A program made the position numbers and the translations under genes. The notes under the pieces are model-generated. The model saw only the letters and a list, made by a program, of their open reading frames with translations, was not told the DNA's origin and ran no database searches. This document shows positions 3,069-33,896 of a DNA stretch of 34,103 bases, one piece after another. How positions within the stretch are numbered: position 1 is the first letter of the stretch; every line of letters starts with the position of its first letter. This DNA comes from a virus: the UHGV virus genome UHGV-0238489; one strand, 5' to 3'.

Positions 3069-3344
3069 ATGAGTATCCGTATCGAGATAAATCATCAGTA
3101 TGTAGTTACAAGTGATCGCTACCAGTTCATTTTGCAGGAAAAGAAAGTGGCGACTGCTGGAAAAAATGAAGGTAGCGAATGGCTTGATACTGTCGGGTAT
3201 TATCCGACAATTCAAAAACTGGTTTCTGGTCTGGCGCTACATGACCTTTTAAATGGCGGTGCTGATAGTTTTGCGGCGTTGGGTGAGCAGGTCGAGCAGT
3301 TGGGGCTGCAATGTCAGACCGCGTTTTGTGCTGATGGTCGTTGA
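3069..3344 (+). CDS. hypothetical early protein (P2 orf82/83-like)
   Basis: A 91-aa ORF preceded by GGAGA and ending at the A start. Confidence 0.45.
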   Translation: MSIRIEINHQYVVTSDRYQFILQEKKVATAGKNEGSEWLDTVGYYPTIQKLVSGLALHDLLNGGADSFAALGEQVEQLGLQCQTAFCADGR

Positions 3345-5610
3345 GACTCGGGGGCGTATTGTCCCCTCGCTAGCCCTGCCAATATCTAAGCGCACCGGCG
3401 ATACTTTCGTTGGTGCTTATCCCTGGAATGCTCCCCGCGCTGCCATTGGCCGTGACAGACCCCTTACACGTGCCGAATTCCGTCAGGTGCAAGGTGTTTT
3501 ATACCGGATAGACCGCCTGCCTTTCTTTCTTAAGACGTTGTTTACATCCCGTTATAACTTCATTCGCCGCACAAAGAGCCCGCTCGGGGCGCTCTATTTC
3601 CTGAAAAACACCTTTGAGCGGAAGCTGTTGCCGCGTCTTGAGCGCGTTAACGAGCTGTGCGGGATGAATGAATCTGCGTCGAATGGTTTCTTGTCTGAGC
3701 GTGACGAATATGCGTGCTTGCCTGATATGAATGACAAAGAGCTGAAAAAATTTGCGGCCAGAATTGCCGCGCAGCTCTGGCGTAAATACGAGGAACTCAG
3801 CGACGAATGGGCTGAGGCTTTCGGCGGTAAAGAGACCCTTTTCACCGATGAGGCGCAGGCGCACATATATGGTCAGGTGGCCGGTGTTGCACACGCGTTC
3901 AACTTAACCCCGCTCTACTGGAAAAAATACCGTAAGGGTCAGATGACGATCCGCATGGCGTTTTCCGCTATTTCCCGTCTGATAAAAGATGATTGGTGGG
4001 TTAACCAGCTCAAGGCACAGCGTATGCGCTGGCGCGAGGCGCTGCTTATCGCTGCCGGTGAGGTCAACAAAGACCGTTCACCTTACGCAAGCAAAATGGC
4101 GATCCGCGAGGTTCACTCGCGCCGCTTGGCTAATCTCGAATATCTGAAATCCTGCGAACTGGAAAACAAAGTCACCGGCGAACGTATCGACCTTATCAGT
4201 AAAGTCATGGGGAGTATTTCAAACCCTGAAATACGCCGTATGGAGCTGATGAACACCATTGCCGGAATTGAACGCTACGCGGCCAGCGTTGGTGATGTGG
4301 GAATGTTTATCACGCTGACCACGCCGTCGAAGTATCACCCGACCCGACAGGTCGACAAAGGTGACAGCAAAATGGTGCAGCTGAATCACGGCTGGAACGA
4401 AACCGCATTCACCCCTAAAAACGGCCAGCGCTATCTGTGCCGAATCTGGAGTCTGATGCGCACCGCTTTCAAAGATAACGATTTGGAAGTGTATGGGATG
4501 CGCGTTGTCGAGCCGCACCACGACGGCACGCCACACTGGCATATGATGCTTTTTTGCAAACCCGGTCAGCGTAAAGCTATCAACGAAATTATGCGTCGTT
4601 ATGCCCTCAAAGAGGACGGACACGAAAAGGGTGCGGCAAAACAGCGCTTTGAGTCACGCCATCTTAATCAGGGCGGCGCGGCGGGTTATATCGCTAAATA
4701 CATTGCCAAAAATATCGACGGTTACGCTCTCGACGGTCAGCTCGACCACGACACTGGCAAGCCTCTGAAAGATACGGCCGCAGCCGTAACCGCATGGGCG
4801 TCTACATGGCGTATCCCTCAGTTTAAACCGATTGGCCTCCCGACAATGGGCGCTTACCGCGAACTCCGCAAGCTGCCGCGAGGGGTGAGTATCGCCAGCG
4901 AGTTTGACGACCGCGTCGAGGCCGTCCGGGCTGCTGCAGATGAGGGGGAGTTTGACCTGTATATCATCGCGCAGGGTGGGGCAAACAAGCCGCGCAATGC
5001 TCAGTCGGTCAGGGTCGCCCGTAGGGTGACGGATGAGGTTAACGAATACGAGGAAGATATCGATAGGGTGGTCGGTATTTATGCCCCTCACCTTGGGGTG
5101 AGCCGCGTACATGTAACCCGCACAGCGGAATGGCGCATCGTTCCCAAGGTTTTGGCTGTTGAGCCTTTGACCTTAAAAAGCGGCGCTGCCGCGCCTCGGA
5201 GTCCTGTCAATAACTGTGGAAAGCTCACTGGCGGTGATGATCCAGTTATGACACCCACACCGTCTGAACATGCTGCAGCGGTGTTAGATCTGATTGATAA
5301 AGGGCTTATCGCATGGGATGACCCCGAAGTTGTGACGGTGCTCAGGAGCGCATTAAAACACGGCGCGCCGCAGCAAAATCGACAGCAAAGAATAGATGAG
5401 CCATTAAAACCGCATCAGATAGCACCATCAGGACGAATGACAAAAGCCGAGAGGGCTCAGATTCCGCGCATCCGCTTCGGACTGGCGCAGCAGGGTATCA
5501 CGCCGCAGCGGTGGGAACTTCAGGCGCTGGCTCGTGGCGGAATAGTGGTTTATGGCGAAAAAAGATTTGTATACCCGATAGCGGACGAGTGGGTGAAGCA
5601 TGAGGGGTGA
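3334..5610 (+). CDS. A: rolling-circle replication initiator endonuclease (P2 A-like), 758 aa from the ATG at 3334
   Basis: ORF 3253-5610. The in-frame ATG at 3334 overlaps the upstream stop and gives about 758 aa (P2 A is about 761 aa). It carries a HUH-like motif (PHHDGTPHWHMMLF) and an AGYIAKYIAKN tyrosine motif typical of Rep-type relaxases. Confidence 0.85.
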   Translation: MVVETRGRIVPSLALPISKRTGDTFVGAYPWNAPRAAIGRDRPLTRAEFRQVQGVLYRIDRLPFFLKTLFTSRYNFIRRTKSPLGALYFLKNTFERKLLPRLERVNELCGMNESASNGFLSERDEYACLPDMNDKELKKFAARIAAQLWRKYEELSDEWAEAFGGKETLFTDEAQAHIYGQVAGVAHAFNLTPLYWKKYRKGQMTIRMAFSAISRLIKDDWWVNQLKAQRMRWREALLIAAGEVNKDRSPYASKMAIREVHSRRLANLEYLKSCELENKVTGERIDLISKVMGSISNPEIRRMELMNTIAGIERYAASVGDVGMFITLTTPSKYHPTRQVDKGDSKMVQLNHGWNETAFTPKNGQRYLCRIWSLMRTAFKDNDLEVYGMRVVEPHHDGTPHWHMMLFCKPGQRKAINEIMRRYALKEDGHEKGAAKQRFESRHLNQGGAAGYIAKYIAKNIDGYALDGQLDHDTGKPLKDTAAAVTAWASTWRIPQFKPIGLPTMGAYRELRKLPRGVSIASEFDDRVEAVRAAADEGEFDLYIIAQGGANKPRNAQSVRVARRVTDEVNEYEEDIDRVVGIYAPHLGVSRVHVTRTAEWRIVPKVLAVEPLTLKSGAAAPRSPVNNCGKLTGGDDPVMTPTPSEHAAAVLDLIDKGLIAWDDPEVVTVLRSALKHGAPQQNRQQRIDEPLKPHQIAPSGRMTKAERAQIPRIRFGLAQQGITPQRWELQALARGGIVVYGEKRFVYPIADEWVKHEG

Positions 5611-5728
5611 TTTATATCCATCTAAATCATGGTGTTATGATGGCTGTGTGAGTTCTTTTCTGATTGGGGCTGCGTTCGACGGCTTGAAATGTTGTAAATG
5701 CCCATAATCTGGTTTAAAGTGTTTTTAT

Positions 5729-5833
5729 GCCAACGACTAGGAGTATCTCCAGTCATAAATGTTGGCCTCTACAGGCCTTTATATAGTGTTGCTCTTGTAC
5801 TGCCTTCTCTTTCGAGAGAAGGTATGTACAAGA
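5729..5833 (+). ncRNA. candidate structured non-coding RNA upstream of the RT (possible retron msr/msd-like or RT-associated ncRNA)
   Basis: The 327-bp non-coding leader contains two strong hairpins: 5729-5766 (gccaac...gttggc enclosing ggag-tat-ctcc) and 5793-5833 (a 17-18-bp stem, tcttgtac..ccttctct / agagaagg..gtacaaga, with a ttcg loop). I found no clear a1/a2 inverted repeat. Confidence 0.3.
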
Positions 5834-5936
5834 AGTAAAGCCTGCGAAGGGAGGGTGTCTGGGGTGAGGAAAGACTGAGAGTTAAAGCATTCATCTTAGA
5901 ATCCATTCAACTCAAAAAACAAAAGCCCAGCCAACG

Positions 5937-6926
5937 ATGAAACCCCTTAGTCTCGAAAAAGCCTTCAATATCGCATTCTTCGAAAAAGATTCCTTTCAAA
6001 ACTTTCTTTCGTTTGAACCATTTCAACAAACTAAATTTATAACCTTTGATGAAAGGTTAATTGCTGAGCCCAGTTCTAAACTAAAAGAGTATCACAAATT
6101 CATAAATGAATTTGTTCTTTCATACTTGAAAGTAAATAAGGATGTTGTGTTTTCGTATAGAAAAGGAAGCAGCACTTATGATGCAGTAAAACTTCATGCC
6201 TGTAGTAAGATATTCTTCAATACTGATATTAAAAACTTTTTCCCGTCGATAACTCGTGAATATGCACGATCAGTTTTAGTTGATAACTTATCGAACGTTC
6301 CCATTTCCGATTTAAATATACATCTGGATAAAATTTTAGATTATATTATTATCGATAATTCGTTGCCTGTAGGGTTCCCAACATCACCAGCTTTCAGCAA
6401 TGCCTGTTTATATGACTTTGATGTTGAGATGCAGCAATATTGTATTAACCATGAATATATATTCACGCGCTATTCAGATGATATTATTATTTCCTCTGAA
6501 AATGATGAGGGGTTTGAGAATATTAATTCTGTAGTAAGTGACCTGCTGGGTGAGTTTGGGAATGGGCATTTCAAACTAAACTCAGCAAAAACTAAATTGA
6601 TTAAAAAAGGCAGTAAGATTAAGCTGCTGGGGATGGTTATTTTACCATCTCAGATAGTCTCTGTTGATATTAAAATAAAAAGAAAACTTGAGCATTTAAT
6701 TCATTTTTATGTAACGGATAAAGATAAATTTATAGATTCTATAATAAAAGATCCTAAAGTTAAAACTAGCGGATTGAATAATAGCGAGATTTTGGAAAAG
6801 GGTGTTAATACAGTTTCTGGTCTTTTAAATCATATAAACACAATTGATAAGAGTTATCTCGATAAGCTAAAGAGAAAATACGGAAATACGATTGTCGATA
6901 TGCTTTTTTACAAGAATGTTAATTAA
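5937..6926 (+). CDS. reverse transcriptase, 329 aa (retron-type or Abi-type defence RT)
   Basis: RT motifs are readable in the translation: motif A NTDIKNFFPSI, motif B' LPVGFPTSPAFSN, motif C YSDD (FTRYSDDIIIS), motif D/E LNSAKTKLI. A NAxxH-like YDAVKLH and a VTG-like VSG are present. AT-rich codon usage contrasts with the phage backbone. Confidence 0.8.
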   Translation: MKPLSLEKAFNIAFFEKDSFQNFLSFEPFQQTKFITFDERLIAEPSSKLKEYHKFINEFVLSYLKVNKDVVFSYRKGSSTYDAVKLHACSKIFFNTDIKNFFPSITREYARSVLVDNLSNVPISDLNIHLDKILDYIIIDNSLPVGFPTSPAFSNACLYDFDVEMQQYCINHEYIFTRYSDDIIISSENDEGFENINSVVSDLLGEFGNGHFKLNSAKTKLIKKGSKIKLLGMVILPSQIVSVDIKIKRKLEHLIHFYVTDKDKFIDSIIKDPKVKTSGLNNSEILEKGVNTVSGLLNHINTIDKSYLDKLKRKYGNTIVDMLFYKNVN

Positions 6927-6927
6927 A

Positions 6928-8280
6928 ATGAAAATAAACATTGAGATCTCAAAAATCCAGCATGTTGAACATATGTCATTTGCTATTGATCTTTCTGAAA
7001 ATAAACTGACTTGCATTGTAGGAAAGAACGGTGCTGGAAAGACAACGTTAATCAAAGCAATTAAAAATTTACAATCAGCAGATACATTCATAAAGACATC
7101 TTCTAGATATATATTCAATCCTGACAGTAGCATAGTATATAATATTAATGATCAAAATATAGTATATGTCTATGATGAGAATTTGAAGGTAATAGACACT
7201 AAGCAAATAATTCCAGCAGATATTAAATCCAATCTTTATGTCGAGTTGCCCATTCCTCATGGAATGAGGTTCAATAACTTCCCAACACTTAGTAAAATTG
7301 ATACAGAACTTAGAAAAAGTATTGCGTTTGAAAACTATAGCGTTCCCGAGGATTTGATAAATATACTCAATGAGGTATATCAGTCTTCTTCTTACAATAA
7401 TCTTAAAGCATTTTCTGTAAAAAATGAAATTTTCTATTTCAGATTGAATGAGAACGGAACATACATAAGGGAGGATTACTTTAGCTCGGGTGAGTATTTC
7501 ATTTTGAATTTATTTAGAATGATTGAGCTCAAAAGAAAGTTCATTGTCATAGATGAGATAGATATATCACTAGACTCTTCGGCGCAAGTCCATCTTATAG
7601 CAGTGCTAAGGAAATATTGTCAGAGACACTCGGTGAATATTGTATTCACAACACATTCACTTGCTTTAATGCAAACGCTGAATGATGATGAATTGTACTA
7701 TATGTGCGAAAGTGATGCTGGAACTACAATTACAAATCGATCCTATAATTATATAAAAAGTACGCTTTTTGGATTTAAAGGATGGGATAAGTACATTCTT
7801 ACTGAAGATGAAGTTCTGCAAAACTTCTTAGAATATATAATTAATGCCTCTGGGAATGATTACTTCTACGAATACAAAATAATATATGTTGGTGGAGGAA
7901 CTAATGTCATTGATTTAATGCGTCGTAATGAGAGAGAGAGCTTTCTCACGACTCAACAGAATGTGATCTCAGTGTTAGACGGAGATCAATTAGGTCAAAG
8001 GCATGCTCGAGGTGAAAATATTTTATGCATACCTTTCCAAAGTGTTGAGAAGGATTTCTATCAAGCATACGGCCAAGATGAATCGATCCCGAGAATTACA
8101 ACTAGAGGTAACGATAAACTTGATAAGCAAGTTTATCGAGGGGTAGTGAAAACCTATAACAACGGTTGGGATGAAACTAGGGTTTTTGAATACCTTGAGA
8201 GGTTAAAGCCTGATGAGTGTGAGGCTTTCAGGCAAAAAATTAGAGCATTTCTCCAAAGAAATATTTCGCCAGAGGGTTGA
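6928..8280 (+). CDS. ABC-type ATPase with C-terminal Toprim-like domain (OLD-family-like nuclease ATPase), about 450 aa
   Basis: Walker A GKNGAGKTT, ABC signature-like FSSGEY, Walker B FIVIDEID, H-loop FTTHS. The C-terminus has a conserved acidic ILTEDE and a DxD VLDGDQ, as in Toprim. Start is 1 nt after the RT stop (alternative upstream ATGs at 6892 and 6916). Confidence 0.7.
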   Translation: MKINIEISKIQHVEHMSFAIDLSENKLTCIVGKNGAGKTTLIKAIKNLQSADTFIKTSSRYIFNPDSSIVYNINDQNIVYVYDENLKVIDTKQIIPADIKSNLYVELPIPHGMRFNNFPTLSKIDTELRKSIAFENYSVPEDLINILNEVYQSSSYNNLKAFSVKNEIFYFRLNENGTYIREDYFSSGEYFILNLFRMIELKRKFIVIDEIDISLDSSAQVHLIAVLRKYCQRHSVNIVFTTHSLALMQTLNDDELYYMCESDAGTTITNRSYNYIKSTLFGFKGWDKYILTEDEVLQNFLEYIINASGNDYFYEYKIIYVGGGTNVIDLMRRNERESFLTTQQNVISVLDGDQLGQRHARGENILCIPFQSVEKDFYQAYGQDESIPRITTRGNDKLDKQVYRGVVKTYNNGWDETRVFEYLERLKPDECEAFRQKIRAFLQRNISPEG

Positions 8281-8422
8281 ATATAAGCTTCGGGATCTCA
8301 TGCGTCTCTATCTGCATGAAATTGCATTTGATAATTCCTATTTTTCTCGTGAGCTGTGTCACGTTAGGCGCAGCTCAGGGCTCATAATGCACCTGCATTA
8401 AAACCGACCCATCAAGCGCGCA

Positions 8423-8441
8423 GGCGAGGCGGGGATAGCAC
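8423..8441. other. cos: cos site candidate (19-mer ggcgaggcggggatagcac)
   Basis: It differs by one base from the P2 cohesive-end sequence as I recall it (GGCGAGGCGGGGAAAGCAC). It lies in a GC-rich stretch between the accessory locus and Q, the position expected for P2 cos. Confidence 0.6.
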
Positions 8442-8577
8442 TGCGCGCCAGACGTGGTGACAGCCTTTATTTTTACGCACCTGAGCGCGTCGTGGTGGCG
8501 CTGTCGTTTTGCGGGTCGGCGCTGATGTTTGTCGGGCGGTTAGGGGGCGTGTGGTGCGTCTGAGGCGATCAGTGATG

Positions 8578-8598
8578 ATGCCGCCCGGAGGCGGCATT
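8578..8598. terminator. hairpin gccgcc-cgga-ggcggc followed by atttt (possible terminator of the accessory operon, or bidirectional)
   Basis: GC stem followed by a T-run on the plus strand, between cos and the Q stop. Confidence 0.35.
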
Positions 8599-8608
8599 TT
8601 GAGAGGAG

Positions 8609-9625
8609 TTATTCTGATTCGAGGCTGTAATCTTTGAAGCGGATCACCTCCATTCCGAGCCAGTCATTTATCTCTTTGAAACGCTCCTGCAGCGGCGTCA
8701 GTTCGTTACGCACAAACACCCGCGCCACCTTCTCAACGTCACCCATTGAACCAATATTCTCAGGCTTGCCGCCCATCAACTGAAACGGCACGCGGTGCGC
8801 ATCGAGCAGGTCGGCGGCGCTCACCTTTTTGATATTGAAAAAATCATCCTTCGTGGCGACTTCACTCAACGGCACAATTTTGATCCCGTCTGGCTTGCCG
8901 TTGGGCGCGTAGAAAAACAAATTTTTGAAATTCCCGAGTCCTTTCGAGTCGCGCATCGCGTTGCGGAGCGATTCAACGTCGGTACTGCTTTGCGCGGCGT
9001 CGGTGACGTACATGATGTATCCCGCGTGTGCGCCATTCTGGTAATACTTGCGGCGAAACAGGGTGGCGGATTCATTCAGCCAGGCGGAATTTAGCGCGCT
9101 CAGGTATTCCGGCATCCCGTACAGCTCCTGATTGATATCAGGCTCAAGCAGATGACACACCGAGCCGGGGGCGAACGGGTGCGGCTGGGTGTAGCTCGAC
9201 ACGTACCAGTAAACGCCATCCTCGACACCCCGGCGGGTGTATTTAGCTGGTGAAGTTTCCAGCTTTAAGAGCTGGCCGGTGACGCTCATGCGCTTCTCAA
9301 GGTAGCCGTTGGCAAATACCAGATAATCGAGTACCAGGCGGCTGAAGTCCTGACGTGACAGCAACGGGTGCGGAATGTAGGTGCTAACCAGAATGTTACG
9401 TTTCACGTAAATCGGGGAACTGTGATGGACGGCGGCGCGCAGGCTTTTTGCCAGTCCCGAGAAGTTGACCGGCGGCTCGTACCATTTCCCGTTATGGATA
9501 CATTCGACGTAATCGAGAATATCGCGGCGATCCAGAACCGGGGAAGGCTCACCAAAAGTAAACGCCTCCATTTTTTGCGGTGCGCTGGCGGTCATTGTGA
9601 CGGGTTTCGTCTGTCGTTTTTTCAT
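8609..9625 (-). CDS. Q: portal protein (P2 Q-like), 338 aa
   Basis: Length and position next to cos, convergent with the terminase gene. Forms the leftward late operon Q-P. Confidence 0.85.
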   Translation of the reverse strand: MKKRQTKPVTMTASAPQKMEAFTFGEPSPVLDRRDILDYVECIHNGKWYEPPVNFSGLAKSLRAAVHHSSPIYVKRNILVSTYIPHPLLSRQDFSRLVLDYLVFANGYLEKRMSVTGQLLKLETSPAKYTRRGVEDGVYWYVSSYTQPHPFAPGSVCHLLEPDINQELYGMPEYLSALNSAWLNESATLFRRKYYQNGAHAGYIMYVTDAAQSSTDVESLRNAMRDSKGLGNFKNLFFYAPNGKPDGIKIVPLSEVATKDDFFNIKKVSAADLLDAHRVPFQLMGGKPENIGSMGDVEKVARVFVRNELTPLQERFKEINDWLGMEVIRFKDYSLESE

Positions 9626-18035: not shown

Positions 18036-19853
18036 ATGGCGAATGGAATAAAGTTTAAAATGAATTTTATAAATAAAATGCTTAGATCGACTACTATAGA
18101 CTTTAAGAGAAAAACCTTTTATCTAGATTTTCTATTTCTTTTTGTTTGTGTTTGGACGCTTATCTCTTCTGGTTCTGAAGTTCAATATTATCTTTTTAAA
18201 TTTATTGGTAGTGATAGTTCCACCCTTTACGGCAGCGTCTTTGAAGATGCTATAGCCCGGATGCCTACATTTAATCAATATATAAAGGGTGCTTACACAG
18301 TCTCTGGTAATTTCGGTTTTATTGCTGCGCTGCTTATAGTCGCTGTGTCTTTGTTTTATCAGAGTGCGATACAGGTGTTTATCGTTTGTGTTATTAGTTC
18401 AGTGTTTGGATTGACGATAACAGATATTGTTATGTTCGTTTTTAACGATACTCTAACTACGCAATCAGTTACTGAAAGCATAATTGCGAATACATTGGGT
18501 TCGCCTATAATTGCAAGTTTCGTTGTTTTCCTGTTTTGTATAAAAAAGATTCTCTTTGGGGCTGTTAATGTTAATTTAGCTTTTCGCTTTGTTATGAGTT
18601 ATATAGTTTATGTTTTATTGTGTTCTTTAATATTATTGATTACTTACTACGTTGTATGTTTTTTCTACAGACCAACAGCTGTAAATTTTTCTGTATCAAC
18701 TTCAGAAGATTTTTCAGGGGATTATTTTATTACGCAAAAAGATAAGGCCTCGAAAAAAGACGACCCTGAGAAACAAAAACGCTTTTCATTGTTAGGTTCT
18801 CCCGTTGAAATAAATGAGTCTGTACGTGTTTATGGAGACATTAAAACTATAAGGTCAAAAACACATGAAAATGAAACCTTTAATTTAAAAATACTACCAT
18901 TACTTAATTGCATAGATGGCAGTTCAGTTAACGCTGCATCATCTAGATCTTTAACGTATAGCAATGTGAAAAATTTATCCATTAAATCGTCCGAGCTCAT
19001 CTCAATACTACTTATAAATGACAAGGTTGGTCATGTTAAAAGTAGTGACGAGCTTGTAAATATGTTTTCTGTTAAAAAGAATGACAGAAATGGATTTGAT
19101 GTTACAAAAATTAATGATGGTGCTTTTAGTTATTATCCATCCGAGTCTAACGCCGGGTTCTATATGGCTACGCCAGTGTCGGAATTTACAGGGGATCAAG
19201 CCAAGAAGATTGTCCAATATACATTGGATATTGATGGCGCTGAAAAAACAATTAGCGTTGAAGTTGAAAGGCTACGTTCAATAAATAAAGATAAGAAAAT
19301 GCACTGCGAAGTTGCATCTTTCAGAGATTCTGACGGTGATATTAACATAAAGGCTGATGAATCTGTATATCTTGGTCTTCTTGTTAAGATGGAATCAGAA
19401 GAGGAGAAGGAATTCTACTCACTTTTTAATGAAGATAATAGCAAAATTGTAGTGGATGGAAATTTACTATATGTCCAGGCTCAAAAAGTTCCGAAAGAAG
19501 ATTTGCTTGGGAAGTATTTTGTTAAAGGTTATCTGGATGGATTTATTCTCCATTCATTTGATAAATTATCATTAGATGGGAGAAATGTAGAGTCTAATAA
19601 GATGGATAACCTGATGGTCATGGGTGATGATATATATGCAAGTGTATCTGATGGGACTAACTTGGTAATAAGCGGTAGGGCTGATCTTTTTTATAAAAAT
19701 AGGCTACGGCAAAATAAAACATTATGGGAGTCGTCAAGTGATAATACGCTAATACTTGGCGGGCTTGGTGGATTGCTGGTTTCATTATTGTTGTGGGGAA
19801 GTAATAAAATTTTTACAACTCTACGTAAAAATGAAGTTATTAATATGTTTTAA
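18036..19853 (+). CDS. polytopic membrane protein of unknown function, 605 aa; cargo gene in an AT-rich island between S and V
   Basis: About five N-terminal TM helices, a roughly 350-aa hydrophilic domain and a C-terminal TM (LILGGLGGLLVSLLLWG). Strongly AT-rich codon usage unlike flanking phage genes. I recognise no catalytic motif. Confidence 0.6.
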   Translation: MANGIKFKMNFINKMLRSTTIDFKRKTFYLDFLFLFVCVWTLISSGSEVQYYLFKFIGSDSSTLYGSVFEDAIARMPTFNQYIKGAYTVSGNFGFIAALLIVAVSLFYQSAIQVFIVCVISSVFGLTITDIVMFVFNDTLTTQSVTESIIANTLGSPIIASFVVFLFCIKKILFGAVNVNLAFRFVMSYIVYVLLCSLILLITYYVVCFFYRPTAVNFSVSTSEDFSGDYFITQKDKASKKDDPEKQKRFSLLGSPVEINESVRVYGDIKTIRSKTHENETFNLKILPLLNCIDGSSVNAASSRSLTYSNVKNLSIKSSELISILLINDKVGHVKSSDELVNMFSVKKNDRNGFDVTKINDGAFSYYPSESNAGFYMATPVSEFTGDQAKKIVQYTLDIDGAEKTISVEVERLRSINKDKKMHCEVASFRDSDGDINIKADESVYLGLLVKMESEEEKEFYSLFNEDNSKIVVDGNLLYVQAQKVPKEDLLGKYFVKGYLDGFILHSFDKLSLDGRNVESNKMDNLMVMGDDIYASVSDGTNLVISGRADLFYKNRLRQNKTLWESSSDNTLILGGLGGLLVSLLLWGSNKIFTTLRKNEVINMF

Positions 19854-19885: not shown

Positions 19886-20014
19886 CATATGGGTTGTACG
19901 GTTTTGTTTAATTGTAATTGCATCTTGCTCTCTAGTTAACATATTGCAAATCATTATTGTCTTAGATGTTTATATTAAACTGTATTCAAATTTCTATTAA
20001 TTATTTTTGTTTTC

Positions 20015-20045
20015 AGGTTGTGCAGTCCCCCACAAAACCCCGCTC
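20015..20045 (+). promoter_or_regulatory. candidate Ogr-dependent late promoter for V (partial dyad gttgtg-N9-cacaaa)
   Basis: Imperfect TGT...ACA dyad about 50 bp upstream of the V start, resembling P2 late-promoter activator sites. Confidence 0.35.
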
Positions 20046-20082
20046 GATTGCCGCTGTCCCTGCCCGGCGGCATCCTTCCCGC

Positions 20083-20724
20083 ATGAACAATTTAACTTCT
20101 CTGCAGGAAATCGCTCGGGCGATCCGCAATCTCATCCGCACCGGCATTGTGACCGACGTCGACTCAGACGAGGGGCTTTGTCGTGTCCAGACCGGTGGGA
20201 TGCAAACCACGTGGCTTAACTGGCTGACCTGTCGCGCCGGTCGCTCACGGGTGTGGTGGGCTCCTTCCGTTGGTGAGCAGGTGCTCATTCTTGCCATTGG
20301 TGGCGAGCTCGACACTGCCTTTGTGCTGCCCGGAATTTTCTCTGATGACCATCCTGCGCCGTCAGCCTCGCCTGATGCGCTTCACGTCGCTTTTCCTGAC
20401 GGTGCTGTTATCGAGTACGAACCCGAAAGCGGATCGCTCACCGTATCCGGTATCAAAACCGCCGACGTTACCGCGTCGGATTCCATCACCGCCACCGTGC
20501 CGCTGGTACTGGTCAAGGCATCGACCCGCATCACCCTCGATACACCCGAGGTGGTGTGTACCAACAAGCTGACCACCGGCACGCTCGAAGTGAAAAAAGG
20601 CGGGAAGATGTCGGGGAACATCGATCACACCGGCGGGAAATTTACCTCGAACGGCGTGCAGGTCGATGACCACGACCACGGCGGTGTGGAGCAGGGCGGA
20701 AACTGGACGAAGGGGGTCAAATGA
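20083..20724 (+). CDS. V: baseplate spike / assembly protein V-like, 213 aa from MNNLTSL
   Basis: ORF 19966-20724. The internal ATG at 20083 gives 213 aa (P2 V is about 211 aa). The C-terminus is histidine/glycine-rich. Confidence 0.8.
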   Translation: MNNLTSLQEIARAIRNLIRTGIVTDVDSDEGLCRVQTGGMQTTWLNWLTCRAGRSRVWWAPSVGEQVLILAIGGELDTAFVLPGIFSDDHPAPSASPDALHVAFPDGAVIEYEPESGSLTVSGIKTADVTASDSITATVPLVLVKASTRITLDTPEVVCTNKLTTGTLEVKKGGKMSGNIDHTGGKFTSNGVQVDDHDHGGVEQGGNWTKGVK

Positions 20725-31980: not shown

Positions 31981-33896
31981 GTATGTGCGCCGGGCATGGC
32001 GCGTAGCGCCGTGACTGGCGCTGTTCTTCAACTGTGGTGGCTGAAGAACGACTAAGAGGTGAAAGTCCTCCACACACCCGGTGAGGGGAAGTGTTAGCGG
32101 AAGGCAAGGGTGTTCATCGCGAGGTGAAATCTGAAGGAAGCCGGATGCAAAATGCTGGCCTGACGAACAGGAAGCGGTTAAGGCGGCGCAGCGGGGTAAG
32201 GTGGCATACATCACCAAAGCCCGATACTCACACGGAACGCTGTGACGTAGAGCCGACAGGCATAAGCAGGAAAGTCGCGCGAATTACCCCGGGAGATCTG
32301 CCGTCCTGTCAGTGTGCTACCGGCGTCGTAAGGTGCCGGGATGGGGCGGCAGAAGTCAGCCGACGCTGTAGTAGTGCTGCAAAACCGGCAGCATGAAGGG
32401 CCGAACATGATTAACCGTGATTAGGACATCCGAACCCGATGATGATTAATGAAGCACAAGCGCAGGCAACTGCGGCCAGCGGCAGAGGAGACGGACGGTA
32501 TCCGTCAGGGCTGCATGATGGCGCTGAAATCAGCACGGCGGCGGGTGGGCAAACGAAAGCGGAAGTGCCGCTGACGATGGAAGCGGTGATAACGAGAGAA
32601 AACCTGATGCTGGCTTATCAGCGCGTGGTGGAAAACAAAGGCGCGGCGGGGGTGGATAACCTCAGCGTGGCGGAGTTGAAACCGTGGCTGAAGAAGAACT
32701 GGCGCAGTGTCAGGCAGGCATTGATTGACGGAAACTACCAGCCGCGGGCAATACGCCGGATGGATATCCCGAAGCCGGATGGCGGCGTGAGAATCTTAGG
32801 CATCCCGACGGTGGTGGACAGGCTTATCCAGCAGGCGATAGCGCAGCAGTTAAGCGCCATCGTGGACAAAAGCTTCTCAGACTCCAACGGCTTCCGGCCG
32901 GGGCGCAACGCATGGCAGGCGGTGCAACAGGCACAGCGTTACATACGGGGCGGCAAACGGTGGGTGGTGGATATGGATCTGGAGAAGTTCTTTGACCGGG
33001 TGGATCACAGACTCCTGATGACGCGTCTGGCCAGAACGATAAAGGACAGGCGGGTGCTGAGACTGATACGCCGCTACCTGAAAGCGGAAATAGTCCGGGA
33101 CGGGCAAAGGGAGAAACGGCAGGAGGGCATGCCGCAGGGCGGCCCGCTGTCGCCGTTACTGTCGAACATCCTGCTGGATGAACTGGATAAAGAACTGGAG
33201 CGTCGTTGACACAGCTTCTGCCGCTACGCAGACGACTGCAACATCAACGTAAGCAGCCGGAAAGCGGGCGACCATCTGCTGAAGAACATCAGGGCGTTCG
33301 TGGAGAACAAAATGAAACTGAAGGTGAATGAGAAGAAGAGCGCGGTGGCGCGCCCGTGGGAGCGGAAGTTCCTCGGGTACAGTGTGACATGGCACAAACA
33401 GGCGAAGCTGAAAATAGCCCTGACGAGCGTGAACAGGCTGAAGGAGAAAGTCCGCAGTCTGACCACGGGAAACCGGAGCAAATCAGTGAAAGCGACAATC
33501 AATGCCCTGACGCCAGTGCTGCGTGGATGGATAAGCTACTTCAGGCTGACGGAAGTCAGAGGAGTGCAGGAAGAGCTGGACGGCTGGATCAAACGGAAAC
33601 TGCGGTGCCTGTTGTGGCGGCAGTGGAAGAGGCCGGGAACCCGGACGAAGAACCTGCAAAGAGCGGGGCTGAGTAAGGACAGGGCGATGATCTCAGCGTA
33701 CAACAACCATGGGCCATGGTGGAACTCAGGGTCAAGCCATATGAATCAGGCGATAAAGAATGCGTGGTTCAGCAGGCAGGGTCTGATATCACTGCTGGAA
33801 CAGCAGAGGCAGTTCCAGTGTTAACATGAACCGCCGTATGCGGAGCCGCATGTACGGTGGTGTGAGAGGACGGCGGGAGTGATCCCGCCTCCTACT
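31981..33896 (+). mobile_element. group II intron (bacterial, class C-like), about 1.9 kb, inserted just after an intrinsic terminator
   Basis: GTGCG-like 5' end at 31986. An RT/maturase ORF sits inside. Domain V-like hairpin at about 33829-33860 (ccgtatgcgg-agc-cgcatgtacgg) and a domain VI-like bulged hairpin at about 33864-33895. Insertion after a terminator stem-loop is typical of IIC introns. Boundaries are approximate (about +/-10 nt). Confidence 0.7.
32439..33824 (+). pseudogene. group II intron-encoded RT/maturase interrupted by a single in-frame TGA (33207-33209)
   Basis: ORFs 32439-33209 and 33300-33824 are in the same frame. The sequence reads ...LDELDKELERR-TGA-HSFCRYADDCNINV..., so the stop replaces the codon just before the YADD motif. 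RT motifs (GIPTVVDRLIQQA, LPQGGPLSPLLSNILL) precede a maturase-like C-terminus. Confidence 0.7.

Follow-up and report, generated by a model that had tools for sequence, protein, structure and literature searches.

The DNA analyzed here, a stretch of 34,103 nucleotides from UHGV virus genome UHGV-0238489 which we refer to as the window, contains a structured RNA gene at positions 5727-5838 that we consider, with a probability of roughly 85%, to be the template ncRNA of a type I-B1 retron. That an RT-templating ncRNA might be located upstream of the reverse transcriptase (RT) gene had been proposed from the sequence alone, and the proposal has gained support from several sides: a retron RT is encoded next to it, the same RNA adjoins the RT in 80 of the 81 loci that carry the RT-effector pair, its helices show compensatory changes, and the RT-DNA of a relative has been sequenced. 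The description as a retron-like template RNA is thereby supported; the label of a canonical msr-msd is not earned, since a1/a2 repeats and a branching G with msr hairpins behind it were not located.

Genomic Context of the Retron

The surroundings of the RNA gene are those of a P2-like prophage, with integrase, gpA, portal, terminase, and tail genes. The retron is located in a variable locus between the replication gene A and the portal gene, and the hotspot of genetic variation in P2-like phages is known to hold defence genes, retrons included (Rousset et al. 2022). The protein-coding genes of the locus are as follows:

3253-5610: gene A (Pfam Phage_GPA)
5937-6926, plus strand: retron reverse transcriptase, 329 aa (PADLOC RT_I-B, Pfam RVT_1)
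6928-8280, plus strand: ATPase-Toprim (OLD-like) effector, 450 aa (PADLOC ATPase-Toprim_I-B)

The locus was found in 10 of 5,426 complete E. coli genomes, with identities of 98% to 99.9%, while the phage collection searched with it gave no match. RefSeq labels the genes at the E. coli copies "reverse transcriptase" and "ATPase/nuclease" only, and the RNA is unannotated.

Two other regions of the window were noted. An ORF of 605 aa on the plus strand (18036-19853), with no Pfam or PADLOC match, is located directly upstream of the gene for a gpV-like baseplate spike (19966-20724), in the position of the P2 orf30 variable locus; a moron or an as yet unrecognised defence gene might be encoded here. 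Located at the window's right end, a second and unrelated RT of the group II intron type is split between two plus-strand ORFs, one of 256 aa with an RVT_1 domain (32439-33209; Pfam 4e-28) and one of 174 aa with a GIIM maturase domain (33300-33824; 5e-22), and probably represents a frameshifted or truncated intron-encoded protein.

Classification of the RT and Effector Proteins

The RT matched a PADLOC RT_I-B profile over positions 3-315 of 316 (368 bits, 8.3e-111), whereas the second PADLOC RT_I-B model gave only 115 bits. The catalytic motif YSDD is intact at residues 179-182 and is retained across the family together with all of the invariant RT residues. The best matches in the PDB were all to retron RTs, the nearest of which belong to the type I-A retrons Ec78 and Ec83 (about 1e-20), whereas the Eco8 RT was matched at only 1.1e-7.

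The effector matched the PADLOC ATPase-Toprim_I-B profile over its full length (596 bits, 1.3e-179) and contains a Walker A motif (GKNGAGKT), the Toprim motif EDEVL (293-297) and a DGD motif (351-353). RefSeq and the gene calls in homologous loci agree on the ATG at 6928 as its start codon, one base past the stop codon of the RT gene, a spacing suggestive of translational coupling. A longer ORF beginning with a TTG at 6892 (462 aa, overlapping the RT gene by 35 nt) was rejected as an artefact of the ORF listing.

The Toprim motif EDxxL is assigned to type I-B1 and EGxxE to type I-B2 in Table 1 of Mestre et al. 2020 (PMC7736814), who also described a structured RNA family called "IB1" for type I-B1, with no characterised retron. 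Neither of the hallmarks of type I-B2 (Eco8), a clade 3 RT and an EGxxE sequence in Toprim motif IV, was found in the window, and the Eco8 effector had no detectable similarity to the window effector at 1e-3. Judged by its proteins, the system is thus a retron of type I-B1 and not Eco8-like (I-B2), because of the EDEVL motif, the type I-A retrons as the nearest RTs, the distance of the Eco8 RT (1e-7), and the undetected Eco8 effector. The papers searched contain no report of a defence phenotype for type I-B1.

Folding of the Intergenic Region

The stop codon of gene A (5610) and the start codon of the RT gene (5937) are separated by 326 bp. Both of the structures described in the sequence-only reading are real. 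The nested hairpin at 5729-5766 consists of an outer helix (5729-5734/5761-5766) and an inner hairpin (5735-5743/5747-5754), and the long stem at 5793-5833 has 18 bp, one bulged U (5825) and a UUCG loop (5811-5814), and is lengthened by UUGC:GUAA to cover 5789-5838. The segment 5729-5833 folded at -42.1 kcal/mol, compared with -23.2 +/- 3.2 kcal/mol in 200 dinucleotide shuffles, none of which was as stable (z = -5.96), and the whole gap between gene A and the RT gene gave a z of -4.33. A search of 5611-5936 against the Rfam covariance models with permissive filters returned nothing at E <= 10, and a permissive scan of 5000-9000 returned matches at chance level only, none of which was inside the gap.

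An 8-nt direct repeat, GCCAACGA, was observed at the start of the ncRNA (5729-5736) and at the start codon of the RT gene (5930-5937). It is not kept in the relatives from Erwinia and Kluyvera and is probably due to chance.

Conservation and Covariation of the RNA

The comparison included 80 genome loci with a related RT, with identities ranging from 88% down to about 37%. Using a profile of the window block (nhmmer) and alignment by eye, we obtained a match adjacent to the RT gene in 79 of the 80 fetched loci, plus the window itself. The RNA is more strongly conserved than the protein encoded next to it: E. coli and Photorhabdus share 57% identity in the RT but about 90% in the RNA block. The features of the RNA gene are listed below.

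5692-5697, plus strand: -35-like hexamer TTGTAA (positional TTG signal, 80 loci)
5715-5720, plus strand: -10-like hexamer TAAAGT (positional logo, 80 loci)
5727-5838, plus strand: conserved core of the probable retron I-B1 ncRNA, ~112 nt, from the 5' AUG to the 3' GUAA (80-locus alignment; RNAalifold)
5729-5766, plus strand: P1 helix, 5729-5734/5761-5766, which encloses P2 (covariation in 76 distinct sequences)
5735-5754, plus strand: P2 hairpin GACUAGGAG-UAU-CUCCAGUC, nearly invariant (100% of cells paired)
5766-5771, plus strand: CCUCUA, a nearly invariant single-stranded motif directly 3' of P1 (alignment)
5778-5782, plus strand: UUUAU linker motif, with UUUA, UUGA, or CUGA in relatives (by eye)
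5789-5838, plus strand: SL3, a long msd-like hairpin with basal UUGC:GUAA, a bulged A, an 18-bp stem, and a UUCG loop
5772-5779 with 5837-5844, plus strand: possible flanking helix CAGGCCUU/AAAGCCUG with one C.A mismatch (clade-limited)

The elements follow one another in a common order across the loci. A -35/-10-like pair and six further bases precede the AUG, P1, P2 in the form GACUAGGAG-YAK-CUCCAGUC, the 3' strand of P1, and CCUCUA; these are followed by a short variable stretch ending in UUUA, UUGA, or CUGA, then by UUAC or CUAC, a long hairpin of unrelated sequence, and GUAA or GUAG. No family-wide conservation was seen 3' of GUAA in the eye alignment of the 80 loci, and the core at 5727-5838 gives the bounds of conservation rather than a mapped 3' end.

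The sole RT-effector locus without a clear ncRNA match was L048 (2841-2907), where the best match had 14 bits and an E of 0.1. The effector homology in this locus begins ~1.3 kb farther from the RT than usual, and there may be an insertion between the genes.

Folding and covariance analysis across homologous loci had been suggested as a check on the RNA, and both stems were found to be conserved, with covarying pairs in P1. RNAalifold, run on 15 Enterobacterales sequences, recovered three helices, P1, P2, and SL3 (5789-5810/5815-5838), in which nine pairs displayed compensatory changes. In the larger set of 76 distinct sequences, all six pairs of P1 showed compensatory changes, the pair G5729:C5766 for example being GC in 54 sequences and AU in 17. 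P2, which in the window has a bulged A5739 and a UAU loop, contains a U:A pair that is replaced by C:G in 6 sequences, and it holds the only invariant G residues of the RNA (5735, 5740, and 5752). Standard pairs were formed in 95.4% of the cells of the 5' domain, with nine pairs doubly changed, and the observed covariation score was reached by none of 500 shuffles; when the 3' partners were slid as a control, pairing fell to 27% to 42%. A covariance model of the 5' domain had a single match in the 34-kb window (5725-5779, 73 bits) and scored 63 to 74 bits in nine later-fetched loci that had been left out of model building.

SL3 is conserved in a different manner. A hairpin of 12 to 35 bp (median 21) was present at its position in all 80 loci, with a median z of -6.5, and compensatory changes occur within Enterobacterales, whereas the pairwise sequence identity was only 0.51 compared with 0.85 for the 5' domain. 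The RNA next to the RT gene thus combines short conserved hairpins with a long sequence-variable hairpin, as is general for retrons.

The AUG at the 5' edge of the core could in principle be the start codon of a leaderless mRNA for a small peptide of 19 codons in the window, which reads MPTTRSISSHKCWPLQAFI. Although an ATG is found at this position in 52 of the 80 loci, the other 28 have no start codon and the lengths of the ORFs vary from 4 to more than 50 codons. The G of the AUG moreover covaries with its pairing partner, and P2 does not vary at any codon position, and we attach next to no credence to this explanation.

Promoter Signals and Gene Orientation

To obtain a logo of the promoter, the 80 upstream regions were anchored on the G of GACU. 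The key positions of the -10 element at -20, -19, and -15 were T in 61, A in 66, and T in 63 of the 80 loci, which corresponds to TAnnnT at a fixed distance. A TTG signal was seen at -43 to -41, with a TTG-like hexamer 16 to 18 nt before the -10 in 61 of the 80 loci, and an A at -8, 7 nt downstream of the -10, in 62 of them. These signals point to a sigma-70-type promoter with a predicted transcription start at about A5727, and the divergent loci described next strengthen this prediction. A scan for consensus promoters did not list the -10/-35 pair of the window, which has 8 of 12 matches.

The gene for the RNA is located on the strand opposite to the RT and effector genes in 20 of the 80 loci (L018, L024, L029, L036, L037, L039, L052, L053, L060, L062, L067-L069, L071, L073-L075, and L078-L080), where it lies a short distance upstream of the RT gene, in some cases less than 60 bp from the RT start, and is transcribed in the divergent direction. 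The base of the long hairpin in these loci is CUAC...GUAG instead of UUAC...GUAA.

These observations bear on the explanation that the hairpins terminate transcription of gene A or control RT translation as a cis-acting 5' leader (an attenuator or thermosensor), with no templating involved. The element is located between the upstream gene and the RT gene, on the same strand, in 60 loci, and the consensus scan returned the hairpin at 5764-5777 followed by TTTATATAGT as terminator-like. However, this hairpin loses two of its five pairs in Photorhabdus, where the flanking CCUCUA and UUUAU stay in place, and a member of the family yields cDNA. The simple terminator that had been named as a possible refutation of the templating role is excluded, and a leader function is very improbable: because of its own conserved promoter signal and the 20 loci in which it is located on the opposite strand, the RNA is best regarded as an independent transcription unit rather than as the terminator of gene A or a mere leader of the RT gene.

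Evidence for a Probable Template Role of the RNA

Two members of the family are included in the supplement of the census by Khan et al. (PMC10849725), under the names "Retron Terminal 308" and "Retron Terminal 314". Mestre-308 was cloned with the full RNA, and its RT-DNA was sequenced, although the yield was 0 by PAGE. In sequence, the RT-DNA is the reverse complement of a stretch of the RNA that reaches from the G in the 5' AUG to an A-run 3' of GUAA, and thus spans P1 and P2 (PMC10849725). Compared with the ncRNA as listed, the RT-DNA has a deletion of 1 nt and is therefore not a copy of the reference sequence. Mestre-314 was cloned from the linker onward, without P1 and P2, and gave no RT-DNA (PMC10849725). 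The census evidence comprises one positive and one negative case, obtained in a heterologous host with the effector absent. It shows that RTs of the I-B1 family can copy this RNA, as in member 308, and suggests that the 5' domain is needed for RT-DNA.

The ncRNA of Mestre-308 contains every conserved element of the window RNA. Judged by this similarity and by the model built here, the window RNA appears to belong to the "IB1" ncRNA family.

It might still be argued that the RNA is a scaffold that binds the RT or effector, or an antitoxin, which is not normally reverse-transcribed, so that the census reads represent a trace by-product. The absence of a visible product for member 308 and the failure to find canonical priming features would fit such a role. 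On the other hand, the RT has kept YSDD and every invariant residue throughout the family, the long hairpin is hypervariable yet always present, which is the pattern of a retron msd, and the deletion in the sequenced RT-DNA sets it apart from the listed ncRNA. We consider the scaffold explanation improbable and favour a template RNA.

Both ends of the 308 RT-DNA are located at the bases of helices that DNA can form, and they may have been trimmed by an exonuclease instead of marking where copying began and stopped. Clade-1 retrons are trimmed by ExoVII, and a type I-A-like entry in the census is without its first four nucleotides. By analogy with type I-A, the likeness of CCUCUA...UUUAU to the linker of these retrons would predict that the RT stops just 3' of 5782. 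This prediction disagrees with the published 308 RT-DNA, which runs through P1 and P2.

Departures from the Canonical Retron Layout

The canonical order of a retron ncRNA is a1, branching G, msr hairpins, msd hairpin, opposing G, and a2. No terminal inverted repeats corresponding to a1 and a2 were found when the upstream 25 nt, the 5' strand of P1, and the linker were compared with the tails. In this comparison, in which the tail of each locus was set against the tails of other loci, the upstream region and the 5' strand of P1 showed no excess pairing with their own 3' tail. The promoter signal puts the predicted 5' end of the RNA at P1, and there is therefore no room for a 5' a1. The alignment contained no invariant unpaired G, nor was any G invariant in the linker. 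G5735 is placed directly 3' of the 5' strand of P1, as a branching G would be, but it is paired, and the helix encloses P2 only. The 308 cDNA over P1 and P2 likewise does not fit a simple split into an uncopied msr and a copied msd.

A possible weak analogue of a1/a2 is the helix CAGGCCUU/AAAGCCUG between the linker and the tail (5772-5779/5837-5844). It is retained in the clade of the window, with one compensatory change from G:C to A:U (L084) and wobble changes (L083 and L086). Across the family the signal is weak, with p values of about 0.02 to 0.04 and a Stouffer Z of -1.4 for the folding gain with the true versus shuffled tail, and the helix is absent from the RNAalifold consensus of the 15 Enterobacterales sequences.

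A small hairpin, CCU-GCGA-AGG, was also observed just 3' of GUAA (5841-5850), with a double change to UCU...AGA in L083. It competes with the helix proposed for 5772-5779/5837-5844.

Four placements of the priming site or repeats were considered and set aside. The G of the 5' AUG as the branching G is contradicted by its covariation between G:C and A:U, with an A and a compensating U in 17 sequences, and G5735, suggested by the sequence "G-CU-UAGGAC" of the type I-A Mestre-34, was abandoned because SL1 is variable among the type I-A RNAs. Priming from the G of GUAA, with only the 5' half copied, is at odds with the published RT-DNA, which is complementary through SL3, and UUAC:GUAA as the inner end of a1/a2, with SL3 alone copied, is at odds with its start 3' of GUAA. 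A search by eye for homology between the 5' edge of the RNA and the tail, of the kind used in rolling-circle or template-jump copying, gave no consistent match.

A bolder interpretation, which is possible but which we hold to be rather doubtful, is that the I-B1 RNAs are non-canonical as a group: they would start at P1, be without a1/a2, allow divergent coding, be copied nearly from end to end, and be primed in an altered way. The invariant P1/P2 hairpin and CCUCUA would then enter the DNA product, where the conserved element might act as DNA, for example as a handle or sensor for the OLD-like nuclease, and priming would be unlike that from a classical 5'-proximal branching G.

A Model for the Type I-B1 Retron

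The RNA would be made from its own sigma-70-type promoter and would fold into a 5' domain, in which P1 surrounds P2 and is followed by CCUCUA, a linker, and the long variable hairpin. The RT would recognise the conserved P1/P2-CCUCUA domain, probably by binding to P1 and P2, and would copy the RNA into single-stranded DNA at least through SL3. Priming may occur from the 2'-OH of a G, with low confidence in any specific site. By analogy with Eco8 and Eco7, the RT and the RNA/DNA hybrid would hold the ATPase-Toprim nuclease in check for as long as no phage disturbs the complex; once freed, the nuclease would kill or arrest the cell, a putative defence by abortive infection.

If the assignment is correct, the P2-like prophage carries a tripartite retron whose type is fixed as I-B1, and an RNA gene that is unannotated by RefSeq here and unmatched in Rfam obtains exact coordinates and a tested structure. 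It also defines the anatomy of an uncharacterised type: promoter, P1, P2, CCUCUA, and SL3, with no a1/a2 and with divergent transcription in a quarter of the loci. The rules for priming and termination may differ from those of textbook retrons, which bears on the defence mechanism and on the use of these RTs as DNA writers.

Comparison with Known Retrons

The nearest solved RTs, those of Retron-Eco7 (Ec78), Retron-Eco4 (Ec83), and other retrons of types I-A and II-A1, belong to the same RT clade as the window RT. In type I-A, SL2 is followed by a CUCUAAUUUAUU linker, at which the Eco7 RT terminates, and this arrangement resembles the helix followed by CUCUA...UUUAU in the window; by this analogy, UUUAU is possibly equivalent to the Eco7 termination linker. 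The a1 ends of many members of the I-A/II-A1 group, UUA(C)-G opposite G-(G)UAA, also recall UUAC...GUAA. However, the type I-A and II-A1 ncRNAs are composed of a1, branching G, SL1, SL2, linker, msd, opposing G, and a2, with clear terminal repeats, whereas the window RNA begins at P1 and no terminal repeats were found. The effectors also differ, being PtuA/PtuB or NDT proteins in types I-A and II-A1 and an ATPase-Toprim protein in the window.

Retron-Eco8 (I-B2) shares the effector class, an OLD-family ATPase-Toprim nuclease, with the window. Its mechanism has been solved: the RT, msDNA, and effector form a tetramer that is released when a phage SSB binds to the msDNA. By analogy, Eco8 offers the best working model for the holding and release of the I-B1 effector, although its RT is distant from that of the window (1e-7), its motif IV is EGxxE, and its ncRNA is of another family with a canonical a1/a2 and a branching G18.

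Ec67, of type I-C with an RT-Toprim fusion, and Ec86, of type II-A, are found in P2/186-like prophages, as is the window retron, and both have a canonical msr-msd. In 1996, Dodd and Egan reportedly assigned Ec67 and Ec86 to a segment of 186-related prophages that is bounded by cos and a terminator.

The closest known counterpart is Mestre-308 of type I-B1, which has the same layout of P1, GACUAGGAG...CUCCAGUC, CCUCUA, UUUAU, and UUUUAC-hairpin-GUAA. The definition of type I-B1, with a clade 1 RT and an ATPase and Toprim effector with EDxxL and DxD motifs, applies to the window as well, and nothing essential differs. The prediction of the system type and the RNA family thus goes back to 2020, a single member has been examined experimentally, and the window locus adds a new member.
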